The notes under the pieces are model-generated. The model had not been told where the DNA came from. It did no database searches and saw only the letters and a program-made list of their open reading frames with translations. 64,000 nucleotides of DNA. It comes from Syntrophorhabdaceae bacterium. Lineage in GTDB: Bacteria > Desulfobacterota > Syntrophorhabdia > Syntrophorhabdales > Syntrophorhabdaceae. The position numbers and the translations under genes were made by a program. The stretch spans positions 55,406 through 119,405 of the forward strand of contig CAXXUO010000006.1 of assembly GCA_963666485.2 (NCBI GenBank), given 5' to 3'. Of this stretch, positions 11,285 to 47,376 are shown one piece after another (the stretch's first letter is position 1; every line of letters begins with the position of its first letter).

Positions 11285-11382
11285 ACGGCGTACGGCATAC
11301 GGCGTACGGTTAAAGGCAAAGGCAAAAAAAACAGAAGATACAGGTTTTGCCGTCAGCCGTACGCCGTCAGCCGTACGCCGTT
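11285..11382. repeat. Inverted pair of ACGGCGT-type heptamer arrays
   Basis: acggcgtacggcatacggcgtacgg..ggcaaaa / ttttgccgtcagccgtacgccgtcagccgtacgccgt. Confidence 0.9.
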
Positions 11383-12253
11383 ATTTTAACTTATTCTTCT
11401 TCGCCCACTTCGCAACGTCGATGGGGCTGTCGAGAACGGCGACCCCGGCGTTCTTCAGGGCCTCATGCTTGCCGGAGACGGTGCCGGTGCTTCCGCGTAC
11501 GATCGCTCCTGCATGGCCCATTTTCTTGCCCTGAGGCGAGTAGCGCCCTGCTATGTAGGCGGCGACGGGTTTCGTCATCTTCCGTGAGATGAAGCCTGCC
11601 GCTTTCTCTTCCTGCTCACCGCCGACCTCTCCGACGATTATTACTGCATCGGTGTCCTTGTCATTTTCAAACAATTCGAGAATGTCGGCGAGGTTCCTGA
11701 GTACCACGGGGTCGGCGCCCATGCCGACGACCGTGCTCTGCCCGACCTTGCTCTCGGACAGGATGCCGGCAAATTCATAGGAAAGCGTTCCGCTGCGGGA
11801 AATGATGCCAACCCGGCCCGGCTGAAACAGCGATGCGGGCATGATGCCCATTTTTCCCATCCCGGGCACGAGGATACCGGGTGTTGTCGGACCGAGCGCG
11901 AAGACGCCTTTTTCGAGGGCGTAGCTGCGCATTCTCAGGACGTCCTTGACCGGGATATGCTCGGGGACTATGACGATCAGCTTTATACCGGCGTCGATTG
12001 TCTCGAGAAACGCATCGAGCACCCCGGCAGCTGGTACAAAGAATACAGACGCATTTGCCCCTGTCTCTTTGACTGCTTCGAGAACGCCGTTGAAGACCGG
12101 GACGCCCTCGACGTTCATGCCGCCTTTCCCCGGGGTGACGCCGCCAACGACCCGCGTGCCGTACTCAAGCATCCAGTGTGTCTGGGCGCTTCCGATCCGG
12201 CCGGTGATGCCTTGCACGATGACTCGTGTGGACTCATTCATCAATATGCTCAT
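11381..12253 (-). CDS. ADP-forming acyl-CoA ligase alpha subunit (SucD-like)
   Basis: VIVQGITG, GGVTPGKGG, ISRSGTLSYE, MGHAGA phospho-His. Confidence 0.9.
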   Translation of the reverse strand: MSILMNESTRVIVQGITGRIGSAQTHWMLEYGTRVVGGVTPGKGGMNVEGVPVFNGVLEAVKETGANASVFFVPAAGVLDAFLETIDAGIKLIVIVPEHIPVKDVLRMRSYALEKGVFALGPTTPGILVPGMGKMGIMPASLFQPGRVGIISRSGTLSYEFAGILSESKVGQSTVVGMGADPVVLRNLADILELFENDKDTDAVIIVGEVGGEQEEKAAGFISRKMTKPVAAYIAGRYSPQGKKMGHAGAIVRGSTGTVSGKHEALKNAGVAVLDSPIDVAKWAKKNKLK

Positions 12254-12313
12254 AGGGAAACCTCATTCATTTCAGTTATCACTTCTCCAGGGAGGGATAT
12301 TCCCTCCATGGCC

Positions 12314-13486
12314 TTATTTTTTCTTCGGTTTGGCTGCAGGGCCTTTTTCGTCCGGCCCGACAAGCTTGTACAGGACGTCGACCGCCTTTTCCGTGGCCGC
12401 TTCCGTCACCACGTGGACGCCGCCTGATTTGAAAATTTCCCACGTCTCTTCCTGGCGGTTGCCGAGTGCCTTTGCCACGACGGGCAGCTTCACGTTGTGT
12501 TCCTGCATATACCGGATAACACCCTTGGCGCCCTCGTGAATGGGGTTGATCCCGCCGTACACGTTGATGAAGATACCCCGTAAGCCGGGCTTCATCATGA
12601 TGAGCTCCATGCAGCGGTAGAGCAGGTCGGCGGTGATGCCTCCCCCCGTTTCGAGGAAGTTCGCAGGCCGCATCTTCTGCCCTATGATGTCCATGGACGC
12701 CATCCCGAGCCCGGCGCCCGAGGAGATAAGCCCGATGTCGCCGTCAAGGTCGACGTAGGTGACGCCGATCTCCCTGCCGCGCCTTTCGAGAGGGTTCTCG
12801 ATGCGGTCAACCCGGTCGGGAAGAGGAAATCTTATACGGGAAAGTGCCGAGTCATCGACCTCGAGCACGGCATCGACCGCCATAAGCCCGCCGTTCGCAA
12901 GGACGACGAGCGGGTTGATCTCCGCAATGAGGGCTTCATACCGGGTCGCTATGTGATAAAGCTGGCCTATTATATCGCTCCAGGCGGTGATCATCTTCTG
13001 CTCGATCCCGAGCATGCGCAAAAGACCCCGTGCCTGGTACGGGTAATATCCGAAAGAAGGTTCGATGTGTATCGCAGCGATCTTTTCCGGGGATGTCTTG
13101 GCGGTCTCCTCGATGAGTACACCGCCCTCGGTACTTGCAACGATGACCGGTTTACCGGAATAGCCGTCGATGGTCATGCCGAGGTACAGTTCCCGTGTGA
13201 TATCAACCTTCTCGCACACGAGGACCTTGCGGACAGGCATGCCCTTCACCTCGCACATGAAAAGATGGTCCGCCGCTTCTTTGAGCTGGTCGGGGTTCTC
13301 CGCCACCTTGATGCCGCCCGCGAGTCCGCGCCCGCCGACGAGGACCTGCGCCTTGAGAATGACGGGATACCCTATCTCGCCCGCGACGTGCAGGGCCTCG
13401 TGCATATCGCTGACGAGCGCGCGCCGGGGAACAGGGATCCGGTTCTGTTCAAAAATGTCCAGTGCTTCGTATTCGTGAAGTCTCAT
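12314..13486 (-). CDS. ADP-forming acyl-CoA ligase beta subunit (SucC-like)
   Basis: MRLHEYEA, KAQVLVGGRGLAGG, EINPL, GAGLGMASMD, PANFLETGGG. Confidence 0.9.
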   Translation of the reverse strand: MRLHEYEALDIFEQNRIPVPRRALVSDMHEALHVAGEIGYPVILKAQVLVGGRGLAGGIKVAENPDQLKEAADHLFMCEVKGMPVRKVLVCEKVDITRELYLGMTIDGYSGKPVIVASTEGGVLIEETAKTSPEKIAAIHIEPSFGYYPYQARGLLRMLGIEQKMITAWSDIIGQLYHIATRYEALIAEINPLVVLANGGLMAVDAVLEVDDSALSRIRFPLPDRVDRIENPLERRGREIGVTYVDLDGDIGLISSGAGLGMASMDIIGQKMRPANFLETGGGITADLLYRCMELIMMKPGLRGIFINVYGGINPIHEGAKGVIRYMQEHNVKLPVVAKALGNRQEETWEIFKSGGVHVVTEAATEKAVDVLYKLVGPDEKGPAAKPKKK

Positions 13487-13610
13487 ACAGTTACGTCCCT
13501 TGTGGTGTTGATTTGACTCCCAGTGCACCGCGGGAAGACCGCAGCCGCAACAGGCAAGTATAAATTGTAATCGCGTTTAAAGTCAATGTAATTGATTAAT
13601 AATGAAATTG

Positions 13611-13980
13611 AAAAGAGGTAATGGGTAATAAGCAGAAAAGCAGGCGAGGGGCAAGGGGCGAGGGGCAATAGGCGATGGGACCTTCCCCCCGCGTCATCCC
13701 GGCGAAGGCCGGGATCCGGGGTCTTTCGTCGACGCGATATAAAGAGGCAAAACCCTGGATCCCGGTGTCAAGCACCGGGATGACGGCGGTGGCAGATAAC
13801 GTCCGTCGCCCTTCCCCCCTCCCTTCCTACCCTTACCTATCACTCATTACCGCTATTACCTTGTGATGCAGAGACGCTGGATTCCTGCTTTCGCGGGAAT
13901 GACGGATGAAAAGTATCCCATCGCCTATTGCCCCTCGCCCCTCGCCTGCTTTTCTGCTTGTTACCCATTACCTATTTTTT
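13611..13980. repeat. Nested palindromic unit: ~70-bp heptamer-derived inverted repeats around a REP dimer (13692-13785) and a single REP (13877-13904)
   Basis: aggtaatgggtaataagcagaaaagcaggcgaggggc..aataggcgatggga is inverted at 13916-13980. Confidence 0.9.
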
Positions 13981-13983
13981 TAA

Positions 13984-14012
13984 TTGCATTTTTAATCACA
14001 TTTGTGTAAGTT
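13984..14012 (+). promoter_or_regulatory. Putative promoter for a leaderless gntR transcript
   Basis: TTGCAT-N17-TAAGTT, 7 nt before ATG 14020; no SD. Confidence 0.45.
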
Positions 14013-14019
14013 GTTGCCC

Positions 14020-14712
14020 ATGGCACAGATAAAGAAAAAATCAACCAAACAGTCAGAGGACAGCAGTCAGGTAGCGTATCAGGGTATCCGGCGCATGATC
14101 TATGCGAAGGAACTGGTACCGGGACAGAAGATAGCCTACAGGGACCTGGCAGAGAAACTCGACTTAAGCCCGACGCCGATCATCCAGGCATTAAGGAGAC
14201 TTGAGCTTCTCGGTTTCGTCAACCATGAGCCCAACAGGGGTTTCTTCATGTCGCCGTTCAGCGTGAGAGAGATCGAACAGATCTACGAGATGCGCGAACT
14301 CATCGAGCCGTCTCTCGTGGCCTCGACGGTCCAGAACATCGACAAGAAAGGGCTCGCCGATCTAAAAAGCGCCCTGGAAGCGCACCTGTCTGCCGAACGG
14401 GATTTTTACCTGAAAGAAAGGCTTTTCAAGAACAGGGAATTTCACCTGACCCTTGCGGGGCTTTCGAAAAAAGAGACACAGATACGAATCCTCCGGAATT
14501 TGTTCGACATCCTGTTTCTCAAGTACAGCGACCTGCCGCGGTCATCGCTCGTTGCAACGGACCAGGAACACCAGGAGATCTATGACGCCGTTTCGCTTAG
14601 GAGCATGGACCGTGCACAGACCATTCTCAAGAACCATGTGACCAATGTCAAGGTCCAGGTCTTAACGAGCGTCCGCAAGATGCTTGAAGAACAGGAACGC
14701 TCTGAATTCTAG
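14020..14712 (+). CDS. GntR family regulator (FCD domain)
   Basis: LVPGQKI..LAEKLDLSPTPIIQALRRLE, NREFHLTL, EHQEIYDA. Confidence 0.92.
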   Translation: MAQIKKKSTKQSEDSSQVAYQGIRRMIYAKELVPGQKIAYRDLAEKLDLSPTPIIQALRRLELLGFVNHEPNRGFFMSPFSVREIEQIYEMRELIEPSLVASTVQNIDKKGLADLKSALEAHLSAERDFYLKERLFKNREFHLTLAGLSKKETQIRILRNLFDILFLKYSDLPRSSLVATDQEHQEIYDAVSLRSMDRAQTILKNHVTNVKVQVLTSVRKMLEEQERSEF

Positions 14713-14754
14713 GAAAGACGTCCTGACCGATCACACGCCATAAGGAGGCAAAAT

Positions 14755-16185
14755 ATGGGTATCAAGACAAAAGACGAATATATTGAATCATTGCGCTCCC
14801 TCAACCCGGTGGCCTACATGTTTGGAGAAAGGCTCACCAATATCGTTGACAATCCGCGCCTCCGTGCAGGTATGGAAGCGACAGGCGCCACCTATGAGAT
14901 GGCCCAGCTCGACCCCGGCCTGGTCATTACGCAGAGCCCGCTGATCAACGAGCCTGTCAGCCGTTTCACGCTTCCCCCGGCGAGCGTCGAAGACCTCGTG
15001 GCGCGGGTCAAGTTGAACCGGAAGGTCGCCAACTATGTCGGTACATGCCACCAGAGGTGTACGGGCCTTGACTGCCTTTCGACTCTTGCCATCGTCACCT
15101 ATGACATCGACCAGAAATACAAGACCGAGTATTACCCGAGGTTCCAGGAATTCCTGAAATTCATGCAGAAAAACGACCTGACAGGCAACGCGGGCGTGAC
15201 GGACGTGAAAGGCGACAGGTCGCTCGCCCCGCACGAACAGGTTGACAAAGATATGTTCCTCCGTATCGTAGAGAAGAAAGCCGACGGTATTGTTGTCCGC
15301 GGCGCCAAGGCCCACCAGACCGGGTCGCTTTCAGCGCACCAGATCATCGTCCTGCCGACGCGCGCAATGGGGAAAGATGACAAGGACTACGCGGTTGCTT
15401 TTGCGATTCCTGCCGACACGAAGGGCCTGATCCATGTTGTGGGCCGGTCGACGCTCGATATGCGCGAGCTTGACGGTTGCGACATAGGCAACGCGTATTA
15501 CTCCAAATATTGCCCGACCCTCATCTTTGACGACGTGTTCGTCCCGTGGGACAGGGTTTTCTTATGTGGTGAGACGGAATTTGCTCAGGAGATGGTCATC
15601 AAGTTCTCCTCTTTCCATCGCCAGAGCCACGGCGGCTGCAAGTCAGGCAAGATCGACTGCATGATAGGCTGCGCGCTCACAATGATGGACTACAACGGCA
15701 CCGCCAAGGTCGGCCACCTGAAAGAAAAAGTAACCGACATGATCCACAGGGCCGAGACATTGTACGGATGCTGTCTTGCGTCATCCTACGAAGGCCAGAA
15801 GCAGCCGTCCGGCGCATACTTCATCGACACGGTCCTCGCCAACGCATCCAAGATCCACGAAGGCAAGGAAATGGCCGAGGCGACGAGGATGATGATCGAT
15901 GCGTGCGGCGGTTTTGTCGCCGACATGCCATCCGACAGGGATTTCTCGAACCCGGAGATCGGCGGCCTGCTTAAGAAATACCTGAAAGGCGTCGACAGCG
16001 TGCCCGTCGAGAACCGCATAAGAATGTACCGGCTTGCAGAAAAGCTGGCCCTTGAAAGCGCCGACACGATATCCGACATCCACGGCGGCGGCTCACCGGC
16101 AGCCCACAGGGTTACCATTTTGAGGGAAACCGATACGGCCCAGAAGAAAAAGGCAGCCAAGAGGCTCGCAGGTATAAAAGAGTAA
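14755..16185 (+). CDS. 4-hydroxybutyryl-CoA dehydratase-like Fe-S/FAD enzyme (AbfD/HpaB family)
   Basis: CHQRC and HRQSHGGCK Fe-S ligand motifs, TDVKGDRS, RGAKAHQTG, HGGGSPAA. Confidence 0.88.
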   Translation: MGIKTKDEYIESLRSLNPVAYMFGERLTNIVDNPRLRAGMEATGATYEMAQLDPGLVITQSPLINEPVSRFTLPPASVEDLVARVKLNRKVANYVGTCHQRCTGLDCLSTLAIVTYDIDQKYKTEYYPRFQEFLKFMQKNDLTGNAGVTDVKGDRSLAPHEQVDKDMFLRIVEKKADGIVVRGAKAHQTGSLSAHQIIVLPTRAMGKDDKDYAVAFAIPADTKGLIHVVGRSTLDMRELDGCDIGNAYYSKYCPTLIFDDVFVPWDRVFLCGETEFAQEMVIKFSSFHRQSHGGCKSGKIDCMIGCALTMMDYNGTAKVGHLKEKVTDMIHRAETLYGCCLASSYEGQKQPSGAYFIDTVLANASKIHEGKEMAEATRMMIDACGGFVADMPSDRDFSNPEIGGLLKKYLKGVDSVPVENRIRMYRLAEKLALESADTISDIHGGGSPAAHRVTILRETDTAQKKKAAKRLAGIKE

Positions 16186-16211: not shown

Positions 16212-16249
16212 AAGGCCGGTGGTGCGACCCACCGGCCTTTAGTTTTTTT
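16212..16249 (+). terminator. Intrinsic terminator
   Basis: AAGGCCGGTGG-N6-CCACCGGCCTT followed by a T-tract. Confidence 0.8.
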
Positions 16250-17555
16250 AATTTACGAGATTGGACAGGACAAGGACCGTCCAGTACGGGGAGAACATAA
16301 GAAGGATGATAGAGACGATGTATGCGGGGACGTAATAGAACGAGCCTCTGAACACCGTCCCGAGAGGGATATCCTTGGCCATGCCGGCCACGACGTAACA
16401 GCATATTCCAATGGGCGGCATGATCGAACCCATTGTCGTGACGATGCATATGACCTGGCCGAACCATATCGGGTCGTAACCGAGCTGGGTGACAAGCGGG
16501 TAAAAGATCGGCAGCGACACGAGGAGAAATGCAAGGGCATCCATGACGCACCCGCCGATTATGTAGCAAAAAATAATGAGCCACAGGAGGACCCAGTTCG
16601 GCAAGGCAAGGCCGCTGATCCACCCCGCAATTTCAAAGGGAAGCCGGGTTACGGTGATAAACCGGCCGAATATGACGGCCCCGGCTACGATCATGAAAAC
16701 GAGGCAGGATATCCGGAGCGTGTCGACGACCGATTTCATGAAGCCGTCCCACGAGAGCTTCCTGCGTACGAGGCATATGATGAGTGCGAGGGTGCAGCTC
16801 GCCGCGGCCGCTTCCGTGGCTGTCACGACGCCCGTGAAGAGGGCGTACATGATGATCGCGAAGAGGATCAGGATATCAATGATGTCCGGCAGTGCCCGGA
16901 AACGTTCGCGCCACGTGCTCTTTTCCGCCTTGGGCCCCCAGTCGGGATGGCGCCAGCAGATGAACCCGACGGTCGCCGCGATGGCGGCGGTGAGGATAGC
17001 ACTCGGGATAACGTTCCCGAAGAAGAGTTTCCCGATCGATTGCCCCGTATAGAGGCCGTAGACGACAAGGACGATGCTGGGAGGTATAAGGACACCCAGC
17101 GTGGCCCCTGCGGCGACGGACCCGGCATTGAGCATGGGATGGTAGTTATACTTCTTCATCTCGGGGATCGCGACGGAGCTCATTGTCGCGGCAGTCGCCG
17201 TATTGCTCCCCGATATCGCGGAGAAGGCCGCGCATGCCATGATCGTCGTTATCGCGAGTCCGCCCTTGTAGTGCCCGAACCACTTATGCGTCGCGTTGTA
17301 GAGGCCGTTATTGTAGCCCGCATAGTGGACGAACTCCCCGACGAGGATGAACATGGGTATGACGGTCAGCCCGTAGTTCGAGAATATGCCCCACATGTCC
17401 CCGCCGATCATCCCGAACGCGGCCTTGAAATTCGTCACGTACGCGACACCGAGGAACCCGATGATCGCCATCGTGAAACCCGCAGGTATCCGCAGGAAGA
17501 ACAGGGTGGCAAACATGATGATGATACCGAATACGCCAACGATTGGTCCTTCCAT
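16248..17555 (-). CDS. dctM: TRAP transporter large permease
   Basis: FSAISGSNTATA, LGVLIPPSIVLVVYG, GYDPIWFG, MPPIG. Confidence 0.95.
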   Translation of the reverse strand: MEGPIVGVFGIIIMFATLFFLRIPAGFTMAIIGFLGVAYVTNFKAAFGMIGGDMWGIFSNYGLTVIPMFILVGEFVHYAGYNNGLYNATHKWFGHYKGGLAITTIMACAAFSAISGSNTATAATMSSVAIPEMKKYNYHPMLNAGSVAAGATLGVLIPPSIVLVVYGLYTGQSIGKLFFGNVIPSAILTAAIAATVGFICWRHPDWGPKAEKSTWRERFRALPDIIDILILFAIIMYALFTGVVTATEAAAASCTLALIICLVRRKLSWDGFMKSVVDTLRISCLVFMIVAGAVIFGRFITVTRLPFEIAGWISGLALPNWVLLWLIIFCYIIGGCVMDALAFLLVSLPIFYPLVTQLGYDPIWFGQVICIVTTMGSIMPPIGICCYVVAGMAKDIPLGTVFRGSFYYVPAYIVSIILLMFSPYWTVLVLSNLVN

Positions 17556-17557
17556 CC

Positions 17558-18040
17558 CTAGTCCTCCTCGTGGAACAGGTTTTTGAGAAACTGGACGAAC
17601 GTGGTAAACGCGAGCAGAATGAAGCCCGCGGCTGTCATGAAAATGTAGGGATGGAATACGACCTTCAGGGTTTCGGAGACCTCGTCCCCCTCCATGATCT
17701 TCATTCCCCAGACGTAAAGCTGCCAGGCCACGATCCCGAAAAATATCGTCATGGCGATGGACGCCACTTTATCGATGGTCTGTTTTGCAATGTCAGGGAA
17801 CCTGTCCGTAAGGATATCGACGACGATGTGGTCCCTTCGCTTCTGCGTGTATCCGAGGGCAAAGGCGATAACGACCGCCCCGAGAAAAGAGACGATCTCG
17901 TATGTGCCCCTGAAAGGCATGTGAAAGATCCTCATGACAACATTGCCCGTGGCGAGCAGCATCAGGGCAAGAACGGCGATACCGGCCAGGAACATCAGGA
18001 TCTTGTTGAAGAAATTGTTGATCATGTCCAGGTACTTCAT
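17558..18040 (-). CDS. dctQ: TRAP transporter small permease
   Basis: 4 TM segments, NVVMR, HIVVDIL; lies between dctP and dctM. Confidence 0.92.
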   Translation of the reverse strand: MKYLDMINNFFNKILMFLAGIAVLALMLLATGNVVMRIFHMPFRGTYEIVSFLGAVVIAFALGYTQKRRDHIVVDILTDRFPDIAKQTIDKVASIAMTIFFGIVAWQLYVWGMKIMEGDEVSETLKVVFHPYIFMTAAGFILLAFTTFVQFLKNLFHEED

Positions 18041-18070
18041 GAACCCTCCCAGGATCTATCCGGATGTCAC

Positions 18071-18085
18071 GTATACTGTATACAA
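18071..18085. promoter_or_regulatory. Putative GntR/FadR operator GTATACTGTATACAA
   Basis: Identical to 19516-19530. Confidence 0.6.
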
Positions 18086-18104
18086 CACGTACAGGTCCGA
18101 ATAA

Positions 18105-18131
18105 ACCGGGGCCATGACGCACGGCCCCGGT
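18105..18131. other. Stem-loop after dctP
   Basis: ACCGGGGCC-N9-GGCCCCGGT. Confidence 0.6.
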
Positions 18132-18143
18132 CATCCTTAGACG

Positions 18144-19181
18144 TTATTTACCCTTGAACTGTTTTTCGTATTTGTCCCTCAGCATGTATGCGTCCTTGAT
18201 GATCTTGTCGCCGGCAAGGCCCTTGGCGCTGACGCGTTTGATATAGTCGTCGATCATCGGTTTTGTGAGCCTCGGGATCTCTGCCATCTCGGAAGCAGGA
18301 AGCTTTATGATCTCGAGTTTGTATTTGTCCTTGGACCATTTGATGGCTTCGTTAACATGGTCATCAACGTATTTCCCGGTCCATTCCATCTGCTCACGCC
18401 TTAAGTCATCCAGGACTTTCTTGACATCGGCCGGCAGCGCATTCCATTTTTCCTTGTTCATGACGACGGCGAATGTCACGACGAAGAGGTTCGTCTCGGT
18501 CGCATACGGTGTGTATGCGGCGAAATTGAAATCCTGGAGGATCTCCATCGACGATACGACGCCCTTCACGACGCCTTTCTGCAGGGCCTCGGGGGTGTCA
18601 GACTGCGGCATTGCGATCGGGATCGCGCCCAGTTTCTTGACCGCCTCGGCACCGGTACCGGAGACCCTCAGTTCCATACCCTTCAGGTCTTTCAGGGATT
18701 TTACAGGTTTCGTTGTCATGAAGTCGGCAGGCGGGCAGGTGAAGACGGTGAGGAGCTTTACCTTGTCGAATTCCTGGGGATATTTCTCGAGGAGGTCAAA
18801 AAGGGCCCGGCTCGCCGCCTTGGAGCTTGTGAAGCCGAGCGGCAGGTCGATCGCCTCGGATACCGGGAAACGGCCCGGCTGGTAGCTCATCGCAAAGTTA
18901 CCGATATCGGCGGTGCCGGCGATGACGCCGTCAAAGATATTCTTTGCGGGCAGCAGCGTGCCGCCCGGGAATGTCTGCACTTTTACCTTGCCGTTCGTCC
19001 TCTTCTCCACCTCCTTGGCCCAGCGTTCCATCTGGACGCACGGAAAGGTCTTTGCTGGCGGGAAATTCGCGTAGGTCAGCGTTATTTTGGTCTGACTCTG
19101 AAGATTGCCGCTGTAGATGACGAACGCCCCGAGTAACAAGACAGCTAAACCGAGAACAAACAGCGATCTTTTGCCCTTCAT
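18144..19181 (-). CDS. dctP: TRAP transporter substrate-binding protein
   Basis: Signal peptide; VEKRTNGKVKV, DLKGMELRV, EALQKGVV, VMNKEKWNALPAD. Confidence 0.95.
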   Translation of the reverse strand: MKGKRSLFVLGLAVLLLGAFVIYSGNLQSQTKITLTYANFPPAKTFPCVQMERWAKEVEKRTNGKVKVQTFPGGTLLPAKNIFDGVIAGTADIGNFAMSYQPGRFPVSEAIDLPLGFTSSKAASRALFDLLEKYPQEFDKVKLLTVFTCPPADFMTTKPVKSLKDLKGMELRVSGTGAEAVKKLGAIPIAMPQSDTPEALQKGVVKGVVSSMEILQDFNFAAYTPYATETNLFVVTFAVVMNKEKWNALPADVKKVLDDLRREQMEWTGKYVDDHVNEAIKWSKDKYKLEIIKLPASEMAEIPRLTKPMIDDYIKRVSAKGLAGDKIIKDAYMLRDKYEKQFKGK

Positions 19182-19424: not shown

Positions 19425-19530
19425 TTGTATACAAAATCCCGTAAATGACAATCGAAAAAATATAAAAAATATCGCTTGACACTGATTTGTGCATCTACTA
19501 TCATTGACCATATAGGTATACTGTATACAA
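19425..19530 (+). promoter_or_regulatory. Sigma70 promoter of the catabolic operon flanked by TGTATACA operators
   Basis: TTGTATACAA 19425-19434; TTGACA(19476)-N17-TATCAT(19499); GTATACTGTATACAA 19516-19530. Confidence 0.7.
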
Positions 19531-24994: not shown

Positions 24995-25002
24995 GGGGCG
25001 CT

Positions 25003-30362: not shown

Positions 30363-30467
30363 CAAAGATTTCAACGGGCGATGTGTCGCCGAAATACACG
30401 GCATGGGTCTGGTCGGTCACCGGATTCCAAACACACCCCGCAAGTAAGACGCCGGGACTCAAAAGCA

Positions 30468-30831: not shown

Positions 30832-30868
30832 ACCAGGGGTTGGAGAGGTTCTAAAAAGGGGGCAGCTC

Positions 30869-34674: not shown

Positions 34675-34707
34675 CAGAACATATTGCCATAACAGGAGGG
34701 AATCACC

Positions 34708-36015: not shown

Positions 36016-36054
36016 GGGTATTTATCCTTAAAAAGGATCACAATAGGAGGGTTT

Positions 36055-37032: not shown

Positions 37033-37042
37033 GGAGGGGAAA

Positions 37043-37510
37043 ATGAAAAAAGAGATCACCTTCACTTTAAATAATGAAAAGACAACCGTGGAAGCCGATC
37101 CCAAATGGACCCTTCTTTATCTCCTGAGGGAAGTCCTCGAAATGACCGGCACCAAGGAAGGCTGCGGCTACGGCGAATGCGGTGCGTGCACGGTCATCAT
37201 CGACGGCCAGTCGGTCAATTCGTGCCTGTACCCGGTCATGGAAGCGGAAGGGAAAAATATAGTCACTATCGAAGGCCTCATGACGAAGACCGGGCAACTC
37301 GACCCCATTCAGAAGGCATTCGTGGATGAAGGAGCGGTGCAGTGCGGATTCTGTATCCCCGGCATGATCATGTCGGCGAAGGCCCTTCTCGATGCCAAGC
37401 CGAAACCCACGGAAGATGAGATCAAGGAGAGCATCGAGGGCAACCTTTGCAGGTGCACCGGCTACGTCAAGATAACCGATGCCATAAAATCCGTTGCCGG
37501 GGGGAGGTAA
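37043..37510 (+). CDS. Xanthine dehydrogenase family 2x[2Fe-2S] subunit
   Basis: GCGYGECGACT, QCGFCIPG, GNLCRCTGY. Confidence 0.95.
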   Translation: MKKEITFTLNNEKTTVEADPKWTLLYLLREVLEMTGTKEGCGYGECGACTVIIDGQSVNSCLYPVMEAEGKNIVTIEGLMTKTGQLDPIQKAFVDEGAVQCGFCIPGMIMSAKALLDAKPKPTEDEIKESIEGNLCRCTGYVKITDAIKSVAGGR

Positions 37511-37512
37511 TT

Positions 37513-39798: not shown

Positions 39799-39811
39799 AA
39801 AAGGGGGGAAT

Positions 39812-40231
39812 ATGAAGATCGAAAGGATCGATCACATATGCTTTGCGGTCAGTGACCTCGAGGAGACGAAGCGCGTGTACCGTGAGGATTTCGGTCTCGT
39901 TCCTGCGTGTGAATATACCGCCGAGTCGGAGATGATAAAGGTGTCGCGCTATTACATAGGCGAGGTTGCGGTGGAGTTCATGGAATCGACCTCCCCCGAT
40001 GGAGAGGTTGCCAAGTTTATTGAAAAACGCGGTGAAGGTGTTTTCCTCATTTCGTACAAGGTCGACGACCTGCCGAAGGCGATGAGGGAGCTTGAAGAAA
40101 AGAATGTTGAACTCATCGATAAGAAGCCGCGGGAACTGTTCGGGACGCGGTATGCATTCGTGCATCATCCCAACAAGCTTCATGGGGTGTTGACGGAATT
40201 GCTGGATGGGGAGTTTGACATCAATAAATAG
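39812..40231 (+). CDS. VOC-family methylmalonyl-CoA epimerase-like protein
   Basis: IDHICFAVSDL, VAKFIEKRGEG, FVHHP..HGVLTEL. Confidence 0.85.
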   Translation: MKIERIDHICFAVSDLEETKRVYREDFGLVPACEYTAESEMIKVSRYYIGEVAVEFMESTSPDGEVAKFIEKRGEGVFLISYKVDDLPKAMRELEEKNVELIDKKPRELFGTRYAFVHHPNKLHGVLTELLDGEFDINK

Positions 40232-40526
40232 GAGCCAATAAAAGACGTGAATGAACTACCACGTCATTAGGAGTCAATAAGACGGGAATGAACTACCACG
40301 TCATTCCGGCGAAGGCCGGAATCCAGGTTTTTGCTTTTGTTGGAGATGATCAGGACAATGTATAATGTAAGAAAAGTCTATTGTATGTTAGTAATATTAA
40401 TAAACAAAGGCAACGACAAAGACGCTGGATCCCGGCCTTCGCCGGGATGACGGATGGTGGTGGATCTCGGCTCGGTGGCCGGGACGAGGGATTGTGGTAG
40501 GTCCCGGGTCAAGGCCGGGATGACGG
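40229..40526. repeat. ~38-bp imperfect tandem duplication, REP dimer (40299-40452) and two further reverse REP halves
   Basis: taggag(c/t)caataa..gaatgaactaccacgtcatt x2; CGTCATTCCGGCGAAGGCCGGAATCCAG..CTGGATCCCGGCCTTCGCCGGGATGACG. Confidence 0.85.
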
Positions 40527-40610
40527 ATAGAGGTAAAGTGGTGTTTGGTAGTGATGTATTCTCAAGATCGTGAAGTTAATAGCTGTAATCACGCTATTTA
40601 AGGAGGACGA

Positions 40611-41753
40611 ATGAAGGTATTAGTTGTGGGCGGTACGGGCGGAATGGGGCAGGGGGTTGCACGTGACCTCATCAAACAGGAAAGGATCGAGACGGTAACT
40701 CTCGGCGATATCAATATTGATCCGGAAAGGGTCCAGGAGAAGCTGAAGGCGAGCCCGAAGGTGTCGCTTATCAAGATAGATGTCAATGATCATGCCGGAA
40801 TGGTCGCGGCGATCAAGGCGGCGGATGTTGTTGTCAACTGCGCGGGGCCTTTCTATAAGACGGCTGTCGCGGTCGCGCGGGCCGCTGTCGAGGCGAAGGT
40901 CAACTATATCGATATCTGCGACGATTACGAGGCCGCCCAGATCCTGTTCGCATCCGATATCGGCGACGCGGCAAAGGCGGCCGGGATAACGGTCCTGACC
41001 GGAATGGGCTCGGACCCCGGGACGAACAATGTCCTCGTCAAGTGGTACGCGGACAGGCTCGACAGGGTCGACGAGATCTACCTCTACTGGGTCGTCTCGA
41101 TCGCGGAGCTTGCCGGGGCGGCGTGGGACCACAGCCTCCACATGGTGCTCGGCAGGATACCGCAGTATATCGACGGTGAGCTCGTTCAGGTGGACGGCGG
41201 CGGCGGCGAGGAGATAGAGCATTTTCTCGAACCGCTCGGCGAATGTCTCATCAGCTACGTCGGGCATCCCCAGCCGATAACAATACCGAAATACATACAG
41301 GGCGTAAAGACCGTCGTTATAAAAGGTGCACTCATTCCCCTGTGGGTAGATAAGCTTATTAAAGAGCAGAAGGAAATGGGCCTTCTGAATAACCAGCTTG
41401 TCGACGTCAGGGGCAACAAGATCGTACCCTACGACCTTGCCCTGAAGCTCTGGGATACGATCCCTGAAAACAGGGACAACGGCCCCCAGGCGTCCGGCCT
41501 CAAGGTCATCGTCAAAGGCGAACGGCAGGGAAAACAGGTGACGTACACAGCGGACATCGTGGGCAGGATGGCCCCGGGGACGGGACTGCCGGCCTCGATA
41601 GCGGCGCTCATGATGGATGCGGGCGAAGTGACCGTGAAAGGTGTTGTCGCACCGGAAGGCTGTATTGATCCCGACAAGTTCCTGGCAGAATTGCTCAAGC
41701 GCGGCGCGAGGATACACCAGACCGAGTCGATAAAGTCGATGTTCAGTTTGTAA
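40611..41753 (+). CDS. Saccharopine dehydrogenase/lysine 6-dehydrogenase-like NAD(P) oxidoreductase
   Basis: VVGGTGGMG, VVNCAGPFY, YIDICDD, GMGSDPG, GVVAPEG. Confidence 0.85.
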   Translation: MKVLVVGGTGGMGQGVARDLIKQERIETVTLGDINIDPERVQEKLKASPKVSLIKIDVNDHAGMVAAIKAADVVVNCAGPFYKTAVAVARAAVEAKVNYIDICDDYEAAQILFASDIGDAAKAAGITVLTGMGSDPGTNNVLVKWYADRLDRVDEIYLYWVVSIAELAGAAWDHSLHMVLGRIPQYIDGELVQVDGGGGEEIEHFLEPLGECLISYVGHPQPITIPKYIQGVKTVVIKGALIPLWVDKLIKEQKEMGLLNNQLVDVRGNKIVPYDLALKLWDTIPENRDNGPQASGLKVIVKGERQGKQVTYTADIVGRMAPGTGLPASIAALMMDAGEVTVKGVVAPEGCIDPDKFLAELLKRGARIHQTESIKSMFSL

Positions 41754-41781
41754 TGAAAGGTTTTCCTTGAAGGAGGGCGAT

Positions 41782-43041
41782 ATGAAAGAGGTCCCGAAAC
41801 TTAACATCACAAAGAGCCTTGCGCTTTTTGAAGAGGCGCTGACACTGGTCCCCGGCGGCGTCCTCGGGGCGCGCAAGCCCGGAGATTTCATCATGGGGGA
41901 ATACCCGATCTTCCTCGAATACGGCAAAGGGGCCCATCTCATCGACGTGGACGGGAACGAGTTCATCGATTACCTGTGCGGCTACGGGCCCGTCATCCTC
42001 GGGTACAGGGAGGACGAGGTCGACGACGCCGTCTTCCGGCAGATAAAGGACAAAGGGTTTTGTTTCACGCTGACCCAGCCGTACCAGAACGACCTGGCGA
42101 AAAAGATCCACGAGCTCATACCCTCAGGCGAGCTCAGCATCTTCCTCAAGACGGGCTCGGATGCGACGACCGCGGCGGTCCGCATCGCCCGTGCATACAC
42201 CGGCAGGACCAAGGTCATGCGCAGCGGGTACCACGGCTGGCACGACTGGTGCATTGAGATGAAAGGCGGCATCCCCGAAAAACTTTATGAGGATGTCTTC
42301 GAATTTCATTACAACGATCTCGATATGCTCGAAGACCTGATGAAGAAGCACGGCGACGAGACTGCGGCGATCATCATGACGCCTTTCGGCCATCCGCTCC
42401 ACCAGAAGATGCAGGAACCAAAGCCCGGTTTCCTCGAAGGCGTGCGGAAATTGGCCGACAAATATGGTTCGGTCCTGATCTTTGACGAGGTCCGCACCTG
42501 TTTCCGCCTGAGGATGGGCGGCGCCCAGGAATTATACGGGGTCAACCCCGACCTGACTGTCATTGGAAAGGGCATGGCCAACGGCTGGGCGATCAGCGTC
42601 GTGACCGGCAAGGCTGATGTCATGATGGCGGCATCATCGAAAATCTTCATATCGTCGACGTTCTTTCCCAACAGCGAAGGGTACATCGCGGCATTGAAAA
42701 CGATCGAGGTCATGGAGCGCGAGAAGGTGATCGATAATATCTGGGATAAGGGCAACCGGCTCATGGCGAAGATCCAGGGCATTATCGACAAATATCCTGA
42801 CACCGGCGCGGAACTGAGCGGTGTTGCGCCGATGTTCATGATAACATTTACCAAGGCCGACCCGAAAAAGATACGCGACCTCAGGACCGAATTTTACACC
42901 CAGCTGATACGCAGGGGATTTTTCTTTACGCCCCATCATCATGCATATATCTGCTTCAGGCACACGGAAGAGGACCTTAACCTGACGGCGGCGGCGATCG
43001 ACGAATCGATGGCCTACATCAGCGAGAAATTCAAGGGGTAG
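41782..43041 (+). CDS. Class III PLP aminotransferase (GSA-aminomutase-like subfamily)
   Basis: DVDGNEFIDY, KTGSDAT, GYHGWHD, IFDEVRT, GKGMANG. Confidence 0.9.
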   Translation: MKEVPKLNITKSLALFEEALTLVPGGVLGARKPGDFIMGEYPIFLEYGKGAHLIDVDGNEFIDYLCGYGPVILGYREDEVDDAVFRQIKDKGFCFTLTQPYQNDLAKKIHELIPSGELSIFLKTGSDATTAAVRIARAYTGRTKVMRSGYHGWHDWCIEMKGGIPEKLYEDVFEFHYNDLDMLEDLMKKHGDETAAIIMTPFGHPLHQKMQEPKPGFLEGVRKLADKYGSVLIFDEVRTCFRLRMGGAQELYGVNPDLTVIGKGMANGWAISVVTGKADVMMAASSKIFISSTFFPNSEGYIAALKTIEVMEREKVIDNIWDKGNRLMAKIQGIIDKYPDTGAELSGVAPMFMITFTKADPKKIRDLRTEFYTQLIRRGFFFTPHHHAYICFRHTEEDLNLTAAAIDESMAYISEKFKG

Positions 43042-43049
43042 GGGGTATT

Positions 43050-45326
43050 ATGAAGAATGAATTTAACATAGTAGGACAGAGGGCGGTGCGCAGCGATTCC
43101 CTCGCCAAGGTCACCGGGGAGGCGCGCTACACCGCGGACCTCAAGTTCCCGAACATGCTTGTGGCCAAGGTTTTGAGGAGCCCGCACCCGCATGCACAGA
43201 TCTTGAAGATCGATTATTCGAAGGCCCTCAAGGTTCCCGGTGTGAAGGCCGCGGTGAGCGGTTTCGATTCGTACGGGATAAAATGGGGAGTCTTCCGCTA
43301 CACGCAGGACCATGCGATGCTCCACACGGACAAGGTCCGCTACATTGGGGAGGATGTCGCCGCCGTTGCGGCGGTTGACGAAGAGACGGCGCTTGAGGCC
43401 CTGTCCCTTATCAAGGTGGACTACAAGCCCCTGCCGGCCGTGTACGATCCCTTCGAGTCAATGCAGGAGGGTGCCCCGCAGATCCATAACGAATACAAGA
43501 ACAACATCAACATCCATATCCATATCGATGTCGGTGAGGTGGACAAGGCCATGGAAAAGGCTTTCCTCGTTCGCGAGGACACCTTCAAGGCGGCAGGCGA
43601 GGCGTACGCGATGATGGAACCGTACGCGGTCGTCGCTATCTTCAAGAACGGCTTCCTCGACCTGTACATGCCGAACGCGGGACCCCACGTCAGGGCAAAG
43701 GCCCTATCGAACATGCTCAAACTCCCGCTCAACAGGGTCCGCATCCGCCACATCAATTCGGGCGGCGCCTTCGGCGGGCGCTCCGAGGTTGCACCGGGTG
43801 ACCTTGTCGCATCACTTCTTGCGATCAAGTCTGGACAGCCGGTGAAGCTTGTCCTGTCCCGTGAAGAGAACGCGACCGCGTCCCGGCAGGTGCACGACAT
43901 AATCGCCACGATCAAGACCGGCATGAAGAAAGACGGCACGATCGTCGCGAAGGATTACAAGGTCGTCTACGACGGCGGGGCATACAGCTCAACCGGACCG
44001 ATCGCGACATCGATCCCGTTTTACGTCTACGAAGAATGTTACCGTTTCCCGAACGTCCGTTATAACGGGTACAGGGTGTTTACGAACAAGGGTATCCGTG
44101 GGATGTACGGGTGTCACGGGCGAGCCTTCCTCGCGGGAAATGAGTCGCAGATGGACGTCATGGCCAAAGAGTTGGGGCTCGATCCTGTTGATGTCAGGCT
44201 GAAGAATGGCTTGAAACCCGGCGAGGTGACTGCGACAAAATCGAAGATAACAAGCTGCGGCCTGAAAGAAACGATCCTCGAGGCGTCCGAAAAAACCAAT
44301 TTCAAGAAGAGATGGGCGAAGCCTCCGAAACGCAAGGGCATCGGCATGGGGTGCGTGGCGATCATGTGCGGGTTCCCGATGGGTTTCCGCTCTGGGTCTT
44401 CGGCCTATGTCAAGATAAACGACGACGGGCAGGTGACCCTCGTGACCGGTCTCGTGGACAACGGTCAGGGCAATGAATCGATGGTCATCCAGGTCGCAGC
44501 CGAGGTCCTCGGCGTGCCGATGGAGGACATAAACCTTGTTTGCGCGGACACGGAGGTCACGAACCTCGATCCCGGCGCGTATTCGCAGGCAGCTGCCTTT
44601 GTCGGCGCGAACGCGGTGCGGGTCGCATGCGAAAATGCCCGCAAGAGGATCGTCGCGATTGCTGCGGAGAAGCTTGGAATAAAGGAAAACGACGTCGGCC
44701 TCAAAGACCGTGCGGCGTATTCGATCAAGCATCCCGACAAGAAGATGCCGATATCGTGGGTGGTACGCGAGGCGTTTTTCCGGGGTGAGCCGATCGTGGC
44801 GACAGGGTCGTTCTTCCCGAACATCGACTTTGAGAGGGAGTGGGTCACGCGGCCGTGGGGCCAGATGGCCGGCACGTTCTCGTTCGGAACGTCGGTCGCC
44901 GAGATCGAGATTGACCAGGAGACCGGAAAGATCACCATGCCGAAGTTCACGTCAGCCCATGACTGCGGGCGCGCTATCAACCCGATGGCGGTCGAGGGCC
45001 AGATGGAAGGTTCGATTCAGCAGGCGGGTGTAGCGGCGCTTATCGAGGGGAACCTCTGGGACAAGGGGCACCTGCTCAACCCCAACCTCCTCGAATACAA
45101 GGTGCCGCTGGCATGCGACATGCCGGAGATGGACACGATCATCGTCAGTTCGCTTGACCCTGCCGGGCCGTTCGGGGCAAAAGAGGGCGGCCTCACGGTC
45201 CGCATGAACGCATACAGTGCGGTTGCCTGCGCATTGACCAACGCCACGGGTGAGTTGTTCAGCGAACTGCCGCTTACCCCGGATAAAGTATTGACCATCC
45301 TGGAACGCAAGAAGGGGGTGAAATAA
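43050..45326 (+). CDS. Xanthine dehydrogenase family Mo subunit, atypical (HcrA-like context)
   Basis: KVTGEARY, RSPHPHA, GGAFGGR, DNGQG, AHDCGRAINP..EGQMEG; catalytic motifs divergent. Confidence 0.88.
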   Translation: MKNEFNIVGQRAVRSDSLAKVTGEARYTADLKFPNMLVAKVLRSPHPHAQILKIDYSKALKVPGVKAAVSGFDSYGIKWGVFRYTQDHAMLHTDKVRYIGEDVAAVAAVDEETALEALSLIKVDYKPLPAVYDPFESMQEGAPQIHNEYKNNINIHIHIDVGEVDKAMEKAFLVREDTFKAAGEAYAMMEPYAVVAIFKNGFLDLYMPNAGPHVRAKALSNMLKLPLNRVRIRHINSGGAFGGRSEVAPGDLVASLLAIKSGQPVKLVLSREENATASRQVHDIIATIKTGMKKDGTIVAKDYKVVYDGGAYSSTGPIATSIPFYVYEECYRFPNVRYNGYRVFTNKGIRGMYGCHGRAFLAGNESQMDVMAKELGLDPVDVRLKNGLKPGEVTATKSKITSCGLKETILEASEKTNFKKRWAKPPKRKGIGMGCVAIMCGFPMGFRSGSSAYVKINDDGQVTLVTGLVDNGQGNESMVIQVAAEVLGVPMEDINLVCADTEVTNLDPGAYSQAAAFVGANAVRVACENARKRIVAIAAEKLGIKENDVGLKDRAAYSIKHPDKKMPISWVVREAFFRGEPIVATGSFFPNIDFEREWVTRPWGQMAGTFSFGTSVAEIEIDQETGKITMPKFTSAHDCGRAINPMAVEGQMEGSIQQAGVAALIEGNLWDKGHLLNPNLLEYKVPLACDMPEMDTIIVSSLDPAGPFGAKEGGLTVRMNAYSAVACALTNATGELFSELPLTPDKVLTILERKKGVK

Positions 45327-46270
45327 TGGTCCTGTCCCAGTTCGAGTACAAAAAAGCGAAGAACGTTGCCGATGCGATAGCCCTTTATACGGCACAGAAA
45401 GGCAAGGCGGTATACCTCGCGGGCGGCACCGACCTTGTACCCCTCATGAAGCAGAAATTATCAAAACCGAAAGCGGTCATCGACCTGAAAGGTATCGGGG
45501 AATTGAGAAAGGTCGCGAGCAAGGGCGGATGGGTCGAGATCGGCGCAAATGTCACGCTGTTCGAGCTCAAGAGCAACCCTGTCATTCAGGACAATTTCCC
45601 GGCACTGTACGAGTCCCTCGAAGCGACGGCCTGCGAGACCCTGCAGATGCGCGGGACGATAGGCGGCAATATCCTGCAGGACACCCGCTGCCTCGAGCAC
45701 AACCAGTCGCTCGAATGGAGGACGGCGCGGGGTTTTTGCCTGCGGTCGGGCGGGAAGGCATGCAACGTCGTCAAAGGATCAAAAATATGCTTTGCCAACT
45801 ATTGCAGCGATAATGCGCCGGCCCTTGTGACGCTCGATGCCGAGGTTAAGCTCTCGGGCCCCGAGGGGCAGCGGGCGCTAAAGCTCGCCACCCTTTTCAC
45901 CGGGGATGCCTTCAAGCCCTTCGCGATCAAGGCGGGCGAGATATTGACGCATGTGCGCATCCCCCTGAAAAAGACAAAGGGGGTATACGAGAAACTGCGG
46001 GTGCGGGAGTCCATGGATTACCCGCTCGTCGGCGTCGCGGCATCCGCTGCCGGCCAGGGAGCGAAGGTCTGTGTCACCGGCGTTGGGCTGAAACCCCTCA
46101 TGTATGAAATAAAGAATACGACCGATGCCGGGATCAAGGAGGTCGCCGACAAGGCCGCGGCCGATGCAAAGCCGGTCGCAAACGCGGTCGTTTCGCCGCT
46201 ATACAGGAAAAAGATGGTCGGTGTCCTCATTAAAAGGGCTGTCAAGAGGGCCATCGGGGAGGGGAAATAA
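45326..46270 (+). CDS. FAD subunit with 4-Cys [4Fe-4S] insertion (HcrB-like)
   Basis: LAGGTDL, GTIGGNILQDTRC..NQS..WR..FC..CNVV..C..SD. Confidence 0.88.
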   Translation: MVLSQFEYKKAKNVADAIALYTAQKGKAVYLAGGTDLVPLMKQKLSKPKAVIDLKGIGELRKVASKGGWVEIGANVTLFELKSNPVIQDNFPALYESLEATACETLQMRGTIGGNILQDTRCLEHNQSLEWRTARGFCLRSGGKACNVVKGSKICFANYCSDNAPALVTLDAEVKLSGPEGQRALKLATLFTGDAFKPFAIKAGEILTHVRIPLKKTKGVYEKLRVRESMDYPLVGVAASAAGQGAKVCVTGVGLKPLMYEIKNTTDAGIKEVADKAAADAKPVANAVVSPLYRKKMVGVLIKRAVKRAIGEGK

Positions 46271-46743
46271 TGAAGACGACACGGGTTAATTTCGAGATAA
46301 ACAACGAAAAGGTGAGCCTTGACGTCCGTCCCTATGAAACCCTCCTGGAAACCCTCCGGGAGCGCCTTGTTCTGACCGGCGCCAAAGAGGCCTGCGGAAT
46401 GGGTTCCTGCGGCGCATGCACGGTCATCATGAACGGGATACCGGTAAGGTCATGCCTCGTCCTCGCCCCCGAGGCGGACGGTGCGGTGATAACGACCGTG
46501 GAAGGCCTGCGGCAAAACGGCAAACTGCACCCCCTGCAGCAGGCGTTCATGGAAAAGGGCGCCGTGCAGTGCGGTTTCTGTACCTCCGGCATGATCATGA
46601 CCGCAAAAGCACTTCTCGACCGCAACAAGAAGCCGACGAAAAAGGAGATAATAAAAACAATATCCTCGAATATCTGCCGTTGCACGGGATATAAGAAGAT
46701 GATAGAGGCGATAGAGGACGCAGCGAAGAAAACGAACGGCTAA
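46270..46743 (+). CDS. 2x[2Fe-2S] subunit (HcrC-like)
   Basis: ACGMGSCGACT, QCGFCTSG, NICRCTGY. Confidence 0.93.
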   Translation: MKTTRVNFEINNEKVSLDVRPYETLLETLRERLVLTGAKEACGMGSCGACTVIMNGIPVRSCLVLAPEADGAVITTVEGLRQNGKLHPLQQAFMEKGAVQCGFCTSGMIMTAKALLDRNKKPTKKEIIKTISSNICRCTGYKKMIEAIEDAAKKTNG

Positions 46744-46951
46744 CGGCGTACGGCTAACGGCTAACGGCCGTAAGGCGTAAGGCTCCTCCTCCTTGCCGTC
46801 ATTCCGGCGAAAGCCGGAATCCAGTGTCTTTTTAATTTTTAAAAAAACAAAGACGCTGGATTCCGCCGCAAAAGCCGGCGGAACGACGGTTGGTGAGCAT
46901 TTTAGCCGCTTGGCTCCGTCCGTCATTCCCGCGAAGCGGGAACCCAGTGTC
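46736..46951. repeat. ACGGCTA-type heptamer array, REP dimer (46797-46888) and single REP (46921-46951)
   Basis: acggctaacggcgtacggctaacggctaacgg; CGTCATTCCGGCGAAAGCCGGAATCCAG; CGTCATTCCCGCGAAGCGGGAACCCAG. Confidence 0.88.
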
Positions 46952-47082
46952 TTTATTCTTTCGCTTCTTGCGGTTGTTCGTTTTGCGTTTTACGTCAATT
47001 AAATCGGCAGGTTAAAATCTCTTCCCATTTCCTGTAAATGTGTTATAATTACGATGATGTTGCAGTTCTGGAGGTGCCGGAG

Positions 47083-47376
47083 ATGAAGATAAAGGTCAAG
47101 GTCGATTCAAACCTCAGGATCAAAAATGTTTTCGAGCCCCCGCTTGAGGTCGAGCTAGGGGACGACGAGAACACTTTGAAGGATGTCCTGGGAAAACTGG
47201 CGGAGAAATACCCCTACCTGCGATTCATCGAGAAGGGTGAAATGGGGGACGACCTGCACCACCTCTACCTCAACGACAAGAATCATTTCTCTTTTACCGA
47301 AGGTTTGAAGCGGAAGGTCTGCGAAGGCGACACCGTTCGCGTCGAGGCCTACATGGACCCGCTGGCAGGCGGATAG
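47083..47376 (+). CDS. MoaD/ThiS-family sulfur carrier
   Basis: Beta-grasp size; C-terminal PLAGG; GGAGG SD. Confidence 0.8.
   Translation: MKIKVKVDSNLRIKNVFEPPLEVELGDDENTLKDVLGKLAEKYPYLRFIEKGEMGDDLHHLYLNDKNHFSFTEGLKRKVCEGDTVRVEAYMDPLAGG

Follow-up and report, generated by a model that had tools for sequence, protein, structure and literature searches.

The 64,000-nucleotide stretch analysed here (the window), from a Syntrophorhabdaceae bacterium with a 3.77-Mb genome (G000), contains a run of 24 open reading frames (ORFs) on the forward strand at 19628-47376 and, divergent from it, the genes of a TRAP transporter (Table 1). Together they constitute a vertically conserved regulon, the core of which is a variant of the iaa pathway of indoleacetate (IAA) degradation known from Aromatoleum. 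Judged from the sequences, we consider it fairly probable that the cluster is a GntR regulon for syntrophic anaerobic degradation of IAA via the benzoyl-CoA pathway. Genes in the same run for an Hcr-like molybdenum enzyme (Mo2), a saccharopine dehydrogenase-like enzyme (SDH), a class III aminotransferase (AT3) and a VOC protein probably encode a module that strips the nitrogen from anthraniloyl-CoA. An earlier note on this DNA had assigned these genes, and each was found where that note had placed it in checks of ORFs and of Pfam and TIGRFAM matches. Below, other G numbers denote compared genomes and L numbers fetched loci.

The gene content of the core bears out an iaa-type logic, as the earlier note had proposed: activation, hydroxylation to a lactam, ATP-dependent ring opening, a CoA shift, a B12-dependent rearrangement and oxidative decarboxylation. 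Shared with the Aromatoleum cluster are a family III CoA-transferase, a pair of B12 mutase subunits, a GGG-type acyl-CoA dehydrogenase (ACAD), a three-subunit molybdenum hydroxylase, a hydantoinase pair and a GntR regulator. The reference loci were those of A. buckelii, A. anaerobium and a Rhodocyclales metagenome-assembled genome (L013-L015); Aromatoleum aromaticum EbN1 itself is not among them. The names IaaA, IaaC/E, IaaIJK and IaaP are those that we take to apply, assigned to the loci by family and position. The loci were retrieved with the published iaaF primer (PMC8360864), and the names IaaB, F, GH, L, M, Q and R follow the accessible part of that paper.

Close orthology to the iaa set, a possibility that the earlier note had raised, is half borne out: the mutase, the ACADs and the first molybdenum hydroxylase (Mo1) fall in Iaa clades, but the hydantoinase and the ligase are not Iaa orthologues. 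The mutase is 56-57% (large subunit) and 51-53% (small subunit) identical to those of the iaa loci; its clade is sister to IaaH with support of 100 in a tree with three outgroup mutases, and it retains the Tyr and Arg of carboxylate-binding mutases. The large subunit of Mo1 (Mo1L) is 47-51% identical to IaaK, with near-identical active-site loops and the catalytic Glu kept, and is sister to it (SH-aLRT 99, quick tree of 51 rows). The CoA-transferase is the reciprocal best match of IaaL, yet it is the sole member of its family found in G000. Both ACADs, which are 46% (first) and 41-43% (second) identical to IaaF, belong to one clade with IaaF, apart from non-GGG ACADs (support 100, FastTree), and have the motifs FGGG and YGGG, with GGG in place of YEG. 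According to the accessible part of PMC8360864, the GGG motif is the mark of IaaF, the decarboxylating benzylmalonyl-CoA dehydrogenase.

Clade membership with the Aromatoleum homologues suggests the following first steps. IAA would be taken up by the TRAP transporter and activated to IAA-CoA by the PaaK-type ligase; alternatively, IAA-CoA would be formed from indole or tryptophan by TrpB2, an aminotransferase and IOR (G000:C7). Mo1 would then hydroxylate C2, the hydantoinase would open the lactam at the expense of ATP, the CoA-transferase would shift the CoA and the B12 mutase would produce (2-aminobenzyl)malonyl-CoA. A GGG-type ACAD would decarboxylate this to 2-aminocinnamoyl-CoA, passing the electrons to EtfAB-FixCX, and β-oxidation to anthraniloyl-CoA would be carried out by enzymes encoded elsewhere. 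Neither a thiolase nor a 3-hydroxyacyl-CoA dehydrogenase is encoded inside the cluster, as had been pointed out before; the gap says little, because the source genome has β-oxidation genes on C4.

The choice of IAA as substrate, with an aromatic end product, is favoured by links to DctP, BamB, Oah, IaaP and trpB2/ior. The best PDB matches of DctP are 4N6D (Desal_3247; 395 bits) and 4PGN/4NAP (332/329 bits), the next one scoring 119 bits; as a control, a paralogous DctP of G000 scores 171 bits on 4PGN. The entry title of 4NAP names Dde_0634, and 4PGN/4PGP, with indole ligands, are structures that we take to be of Dde_0634 too. Dde_0634 binds IAA, as stated in the accessible part of PMC9973260. 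A BamB-like gene (1115 bits to 4Z3W; class II benzoyl-CoA reductase) is present in 52/53 carriers of the cluster and in 9/15 non-carriers (6/6 inside the order, 3/9 outside), and Oah in 36 of the 40 genomes tested; G000 has it too. An IaaP gene (55% identity) adjoins the cluster in G049 and G285, whose hydantoinase is of the window type (70% and 78%) and accompanied by PaaK and Mo1. Four genomes of family f11 (G123, G154, G272 and G323) have trpB2 and a gene for a class I aminotransferase directly behind the module, and all but G323 then have iorA; trpB2, the aminotransferase gene and iorA are near the hydantoinase in G285, and an iorA-like gene is just behind hydantoinase B in G040. Clusters of trpB2, a class I aminotransferase gene and iorA/iorB were also seen at G000:C7:1827-8733, L142:11871-17554 and L111:12946-16865; such a cluster could lead from indole via tryptophan to indoleacetyl-CoA. 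Other substrates were considered and ruled out: thymine or uracil degraded to methylmalonate, by the IaaH-like mutase and the GGG-type ACADs; imidazole-acetate, which would need no mutase; and tryptamine entering through AT3, for which a Kat-type enzyme would need a thioester.

The case for nitrogen removal depends on the four module genes. The predicted structure of SDH (pLDDT 97.6) matches 4INA with Z 37.8 and the lysine dehydrogenase 3ABI with Z 36.6 (root mean square deviation 2.5, 325 aligned); by this model SDH has the fold of lysine 6-dehydrogenase and carboxyspermidine dehydrogenase, a family of NAD(P) C-N oxidoreductases. Its ESM Atlas matches are generic saccharopine dehydrogenase clusters only. 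The large subunit of Mo2 (Mo2L) has HcrA as its best PDB match (1RM6, 416 bits) and shares the HG and KE motifs with it; it forms a clade of its own, of 20 rows (support 100, quick tree), and Mo2 scores below the TIGR03194/03195 cut-offs (619 of 995; 235 of 405). The FAD subunit of Mo2 carries a four-Cys [4Fe-4S] insert, as does HcrB, in all 20 readable rows, two further rows being unreadable. The C-terminal motif of Mo2L reads KEGGLT, KEAGMS or KEAAMS vs KEASEG in HcrA, whose Glu, catalytic in the xanthine oxidase family, is thus replaced by Leu or Met (Leu in the window). Mo2 was rejected as the Hcr of a phenol pathway, there being a better HcrA match (900 bits) at G000:C1:869203. Hcr-like proteins are induced on 4-aminobenzoate in Desulfatiglans anilini (PMC7500099, accessible part).

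AT3 is 56% identical over 410 aa to Cloacimonas-type Kat alleles, anchored by published primers, vs 29% to the genome's next paralogue, and the members of its protein cluster carry the name 3-aminobutanoyl-CoA transaminase. Kat acts only on β-amino thioesters, an aromatic one, β-phenylalanyl thioester, included (PMC3149608, accessible part). AT3 would thus be aimed at reduced anthraniloyl-CoA, because on a route from IAA only there is the nitrogen β to the thioester. The VOC gene accompanies mostly SDH and AT3, and a MoaD-like gene comes after Mo2 in several families. Mo2L is present in 47/53 carriers, 3/15 non-carriers and none of four proteobacterial iaa carriers, AT3 in 26/38 carriers vs 3/23 others, and SDH in 34 of the 41 Syntrophorhabdales genomes. 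A gene for an OYE/BaiCD-like flavoenzyme (L090:5531-7528, L111:8022-10112, L166:10814-12805) was noted in the clusters of G049 and G285, genomes without Mo2 and AT3, and also, in G272, within the module itself; its product may be an alternative reductase.

As a tentative mechanism, Mo2 would receive low-potential electrons via the extra [4Fe-4S] cluster and reduce the ring of anthraniloyl-CoA with the amine retained; SDH would reduce the cyclic enamine/imine to a 2-aminocyclohexene-carbonyl-CoA; AT3 would transaminate this β-amino thioester to the 2-oxo ester; and the VOC protein would shift the α proton before Oah opens the ring. Taken as a whole this sequence is possible rather than probable. 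A shade more doubtful is the wider proposal that Mo2, SDH, the Kat-like AT3 and the VOC protein represent a new way of dearomatising and deaminating anthraniloyl-CoA, in which BamB is bypassed and the nitrogen is kept as glutamate, and that the Syntrophorhabdales are order-wide degraders of indole, tryptophan and IAA. The tungsten-dependent BamB step needs very low-potential electrons, and a bypass would save energy.

With the same IAA core, Mo2 could instead deaminate directly in the manner of Hcr, converting 2-aminobenzoyl- or 2-aminocinnamoyl-CoA to benzoyl- or cinnamoyl-CoA and ammonia, and SDH and AT3 would have side or salvage functions. HcrA is indeed the closest structural relative of Mo2, the insert is of the Hcr type, and Mo2 occurs without AT3 in G021, G030, G090, G217, G224 and G269. 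However, Mo2 is without the Glu that HcrA keeps, and SDH and AT3 would be unexplained though they adjoin Mo2 in most fetched loci, which makes direct deamination unlikely. A less probable scenario again is that the module replaces IaaP and IaaA: 2-aminocinnamoyl-CoA would be converted to a β-amino-3-arylpropionyl-CoA, from which AT3 would make a benzoylacetyl-type ester. Kat does take the β-phenylalanyl thioester (PMC3149608, accessible part), and G049 and G285, the two carriers in which a true IaaP of full length was found, lack both Mo2 and AT3; against this, families f11 and f57 have the module together with a HAD-hydratase fusion (31-34% to IaaP), no ammonia-lyase is present, the anticorrelation is of n=2, and in G034 the copies of both are damaged.

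Core and module have a common operator and therefore most likely form one regulon. The amine-handling module was itself singled out in the earlier note, and its probable co-regulation with the core through this operator adds to that proposal. The operator, a 14-mer TGTATACAGTATAC read from the window, has three perfect copies in G000, two of them within the cluster. Its core TGTATACA is found near the CoA-transferase start in 14/20 relatives. A site with at most one mismatch lies upstream of 11/29 SDH-containing operons vs 2/249 control ORFs, and four of five genomes, of which four had been picked because the site had already been seen, have just one perfect 14-mer, which precedes the module. 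The GntR protein of the run is the probable binder of this sequence. The third perfect copy (G000:C1:750063) is 257 bp upstream of a run of nuoE/F/G-like and gltD-like genes, named by eye, which is perhaps the electron outlet of the regulon. Promoter and terminator scans of 28000-47600 gave counts near shuffled levels (11 vs 9.1 and 30 vs 20.2).

A number of observations weigh against an IAA regulon with a nitrogen module as outlined here. The mutase pocket reads RGLFGGGG vs RMIAAGGGG in IaaH. Hydantoinase A is in another clade of the same family as IaaC, and a grouping of the two was rejected (p-AU 3.8e-7) in an approximately unbiased (AU) test on 23 of 37 rows, which left out two mis-trimmed plasmid rows and 12 others, mostly close duplicates, and in which the tested group included L171, added after the first tree had been seen. 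The ligase (TIGR02155, 398 bits, below cut-off; PDB 4R1L, 363 bits) has no BLAST match to IaaB at 1e-5 and is of another ligase family. The CoA-transferase is only 37% identical to IaaL. A search for IaaP orthologues gave none in G000 (at 1e-60) and none in most carriers; the best IaaA match in G000 (28%) is outside the cluster. We know of no ligand of Desal_3247, the best match of DctP, and no TrpB-type gene other than TrpB2, which may be biosynthetic, was found in G000. BamB is general within the order, and two of its matches, in G185 and G217, have an identity of only 52-54%; among the 40 genomes, G025, G027, G032 and G185 gave no Oah; and the carriers in the co-occurrence counts are kin and not independent. 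AT3 was not found in 12/38 carriers, nor Mo2 in 6/53, and a close operator match is missing at 18/29 SDH operons, 16 of the 29 having at least three mismatches.

Some of these points would be accounted for by another benzo-fused N-heterocycle, such as quinoline-4-carboxylate or a hydroxy-indoleacetate, whose breakdown would lead to (2-aminophenyl)succinate or a substituted derivative of it. Such a substrate would explain the non-orthologous hydantoinase, the different ligase and the altered mutase pocket; the two ACAD paralogues also speak for it, and the Hcr-like enzyme could take off a ring hydroxyl. Nevertheless, the TrpB2, IOR and IaaP links argue for IAA, in G021 and G269 this hydantoinase (82-83%) occurs alongside a mutase with an IaaH-like pocket, and order-wide retention suggests an abundant natural substrate, so that this alternative seems about as improbable as a replacement of IaaP. 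An aliphatic N-heterocycle is an unlikely substrate, and the specific route in the earlier note, from a pyridine, piperidine or pyrrole acid to an aliphatic omega-amino dicarboxylate, is hardly credible if AbfD and SucCD are taken as its lower pathway: although IaaF takes butyl- and hexylmalonyl-CoA at low rates (PMC8360864, accessible part), the SDH fold is nearest to lysine 6-dehydrogenase and the cluster is without a thiolase, BamB and Oah co-occur with the core while AbfD and SucCD do not, DctP resembles binders of aromatic acids, AT3 is of the β- and not the omega-type, and the Iaa clades and IaaP neighbours speak otherwise.

Some related observations on the core enzymes may be mentioned. 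The mutases of G021:C80 and G269:C110 have an IaaH-like pocket, RMLAGGGG, in genomes without AT3 that have kept Mo2. A divergent subclade of Mo1L (53-58%; L019:9112-10401, also G015, G049 and G169) has a cysteine desulfurase/selenocysteine lyase-like gene directly behind it in G003, G015 and G049; in G169 that gene comes after the hydantoinase. An acyl-CoA dehydrogenase gene is present in two nearly identical copies on different contigs, G000:C2:344726-345880 and C3:310262-311416. Plasmid hydantoinases (46-47%) were examined as a guide to the substrate and set aside, as their peptide-ABC contexts give no clue; an IaaH-clade mutase was not found on the plasmids, the best match being 45.6%.

The earlier note described the locus as an island. 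The marks of a genomic island, that is atypical composition, tRNA or mobility genes and patchy presence, were not found: the GC content is 56.6% vs 54.5% for the genome, the window contains no tRNA gene and the gene order is kept in relatives. Gene order and order-wide presence therefore indicate an inherited operon. Hydantoinase A orthologues (at least 75%) occur in 37 of the 41 Syntrophorhabdales genomes, G000 included, and at 63% or above in 38 of the 301 genomes sampled from the phylum. Within the stretches that were fetched, the CoA-transferase, hydantoinase, ligase and Mo1 genes are together in 20/20 Syntrophorhabdales loci, and the mutase adjoins them in 17/20. Synteny, which the earlier note had put forward as a check, is complete among congeners, 7/7 of which have the gene order of the window over the stretches fetched, but beyond the genus the genes for Mo2, SDH, AT3 and the VOC protein mostly stand as an operon of their own. 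Proteins almost identical to those encoded here bear the labels Syntrophorhabdaceae or Syntrophorhabdus. Gaps within the run are at most 60 bp in 20/23 cases; the three long ones (506, 379 and 339 bp) are filled with palindromic repeats, whose 13-base core is found 213 times in the source genome, and the first two shrink to 40 and 31 bp in congeners.

The cluster differs from that of Aromatoleum in its PaaK-type ligase, its non-orthologous hydantoinase and a TRAP transporter where Aromatoleum has the IaaM binding protein. It further has two ACADs, MeaB, a dedicated Etf-FixCX chain and the extra module, and is without IaaP or IaaA; its host has a class II benzoyl-CoA reductase. Predicted iaa operons with an iaaF orthologue and a dedicated electron transfer flavoprotein (ETF), which set beside the cluster by description only are alike in both features, are listed for strict anaerobes (D. 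anilini, NaphS2, Desulfocarbo and Ferroglobus) in the accessible part of PMC8360864, where neither Syntrophorhabdales nor a nitrogen module is mentioned. These operons are probably of the same type, and the type of cluster has therefore probably been foreseen. A literature search found no description of the cluster in Syntrophorhabdales or of the module, though key subscription papers outside its scope may list the cluster.

Kat itself, the 3-aminobutyryl-CoA aminotransferase of Ca. Cloacamonas, is a HemL-like class III enzyme that is 55-63% identical to AT3 homologues and serves lysine fermentation (PMC3149608, accessible part), whereas AT3 sits in an aromatic regulon. A Kat homologue of NaphS2, 60% identical, is left unexplained in the same part of that paper, and the module offers a role for such orphan homologues. 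Methanogenic consortia mineralise indole and tryptophan via anthranilate, and the accessible part of PMC6221969 names only one strictly anaerobic isolate and none of the genes responsible; for nitrogen removal from aminobenzoyl-CoA in strict anaerobes, that of PMC7500099 identifies no enzyme. The cluster supplies candidate organisms, namely the whole order, and a testable gene set for indole and tryptophan breakdown, and the module supplies four candidates for nitrogen removal, among them a molybdoenzyme clade without the conserved Glu of its family. The cluster genes are retained across the order even in genomes of 1.5-2 Mb. Were the wider proposal on anthraniloyl-CoA given above correct, the Syntrophorhabdales would break down indole, tryptophan and IAA in methanogenic habitats, a role for which they have so far not been named.

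Table 1. Features of the cluster and its surroundings, in window coordinates
Feature	Position	Strand	Basis or remark
Family III CoA-transferase, IaaL-like, probable intramolecular CoA shift	19628-20815	+	37% to Aromatoleum IaaL
MeaB, mutase chaperone GTPase	20840-21799	+	TIGR00750 above cut-off
Two IaaF-clade ACADs	21860-23020, 23032-24180	+	GGG motif
EtfB, EtfA, FixC, FixX (27266-27547, 93 aa), dedicated electron acceptor chain	24224-27547	+	Pfam/TIGRFAM
GntR/FCD regulator, IaaR-like	27564-28283	+	Pfam; 28-30% to Aromatoleum regulator
B12 mutase, small and large subunit, IaaG/IaaH clade	28322-30362	+	identity, tree
ATP-dependent hydantoinase/lactamase A and B	30869-34674	+	34-35% and 31% to IaaC/E
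PaaK-type aryl-acetate CoA ligase, in place of IaaB	34708-36015	+	TIGR02155, PDB 4R1L
Mo1 (M, S, L), IaaIJK counterpart	36055-39798	+	identity, tree
VOC protein, methylmalonyl-CoA epimerase-like	39812-40231	+	TIGR03081 89 bits, cut-off 115
SDH, saccharopine/lysine 6-dehydrogenase-fold NAD(P) amine/imine oxidoreductase	40611-41753	+	predicted structure
AT3, Kat-like acyl-CoA beta-transaminase, class III	41782-43041	+	56% to Kat
Mo2 (L, M, S), Hcr-like	43050-46743	+	best PDB match HcrA 1RM6
MoaD/ThiS-like sulfur carrier, 97 aa, Gly-Gly end	47083-47376	+	sequence; no Pfam match
TRAP transporter, dctP (18144-19181), dctQ, dctM, probable indole-acid uptake	16248-19181	-	Pfam, PDB matches
Operator GTATACTGTATACA between dctP and dctQ	18071-18084		perfect 14-mer
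Operator half-site TTGTATACAA	about 19425
Operator GTATACTGTATACA upstream of main operon	19516-19529		perfect 14-mer
SucCD-like (11381-13486), second GntR, AbfD-like dehydratase (14755-16185)	11381-16185		separate module
Palindromic REP-like repeats, long gaps	13529-14001, 30363-30868, 40232-40610, 46744-47082

On the far side of the transporter genes, the SucCD-like, GntR and AbfD-like genes, which the earlier note had drawn into the pathway argument, are a conserved Syntrophorhabdales unit outside this pathway. AbfD and SucCD each occur in 20/54 genomes, about 2 kb apart in 18, and their role as a lower pathway was rejected, their distribution being independent of the core. They are present in G026, G033, G036, G083 and G181, all without the hydantoinase core; most carriers from other orders lack them, and they adjoin the core only in this genus. 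In the genome-wide scan for the 14-mer, no operator was found near this unit.

Finally, we note two features downstream of the cluster. At 50810-52754 of the window, a TgpA/transglutaminase-like gene is divided over two overlapping ORFs, and at 59984-63429 an arginase/agmatinase gene, an ORF corresponding only to the C-terminal part of a saccharopine dehydrogenase and a gene for a pyridoxal phosphate-dependent decarboxylase form a probable carboxynorspermidine operon, which is possibly frameshifted.

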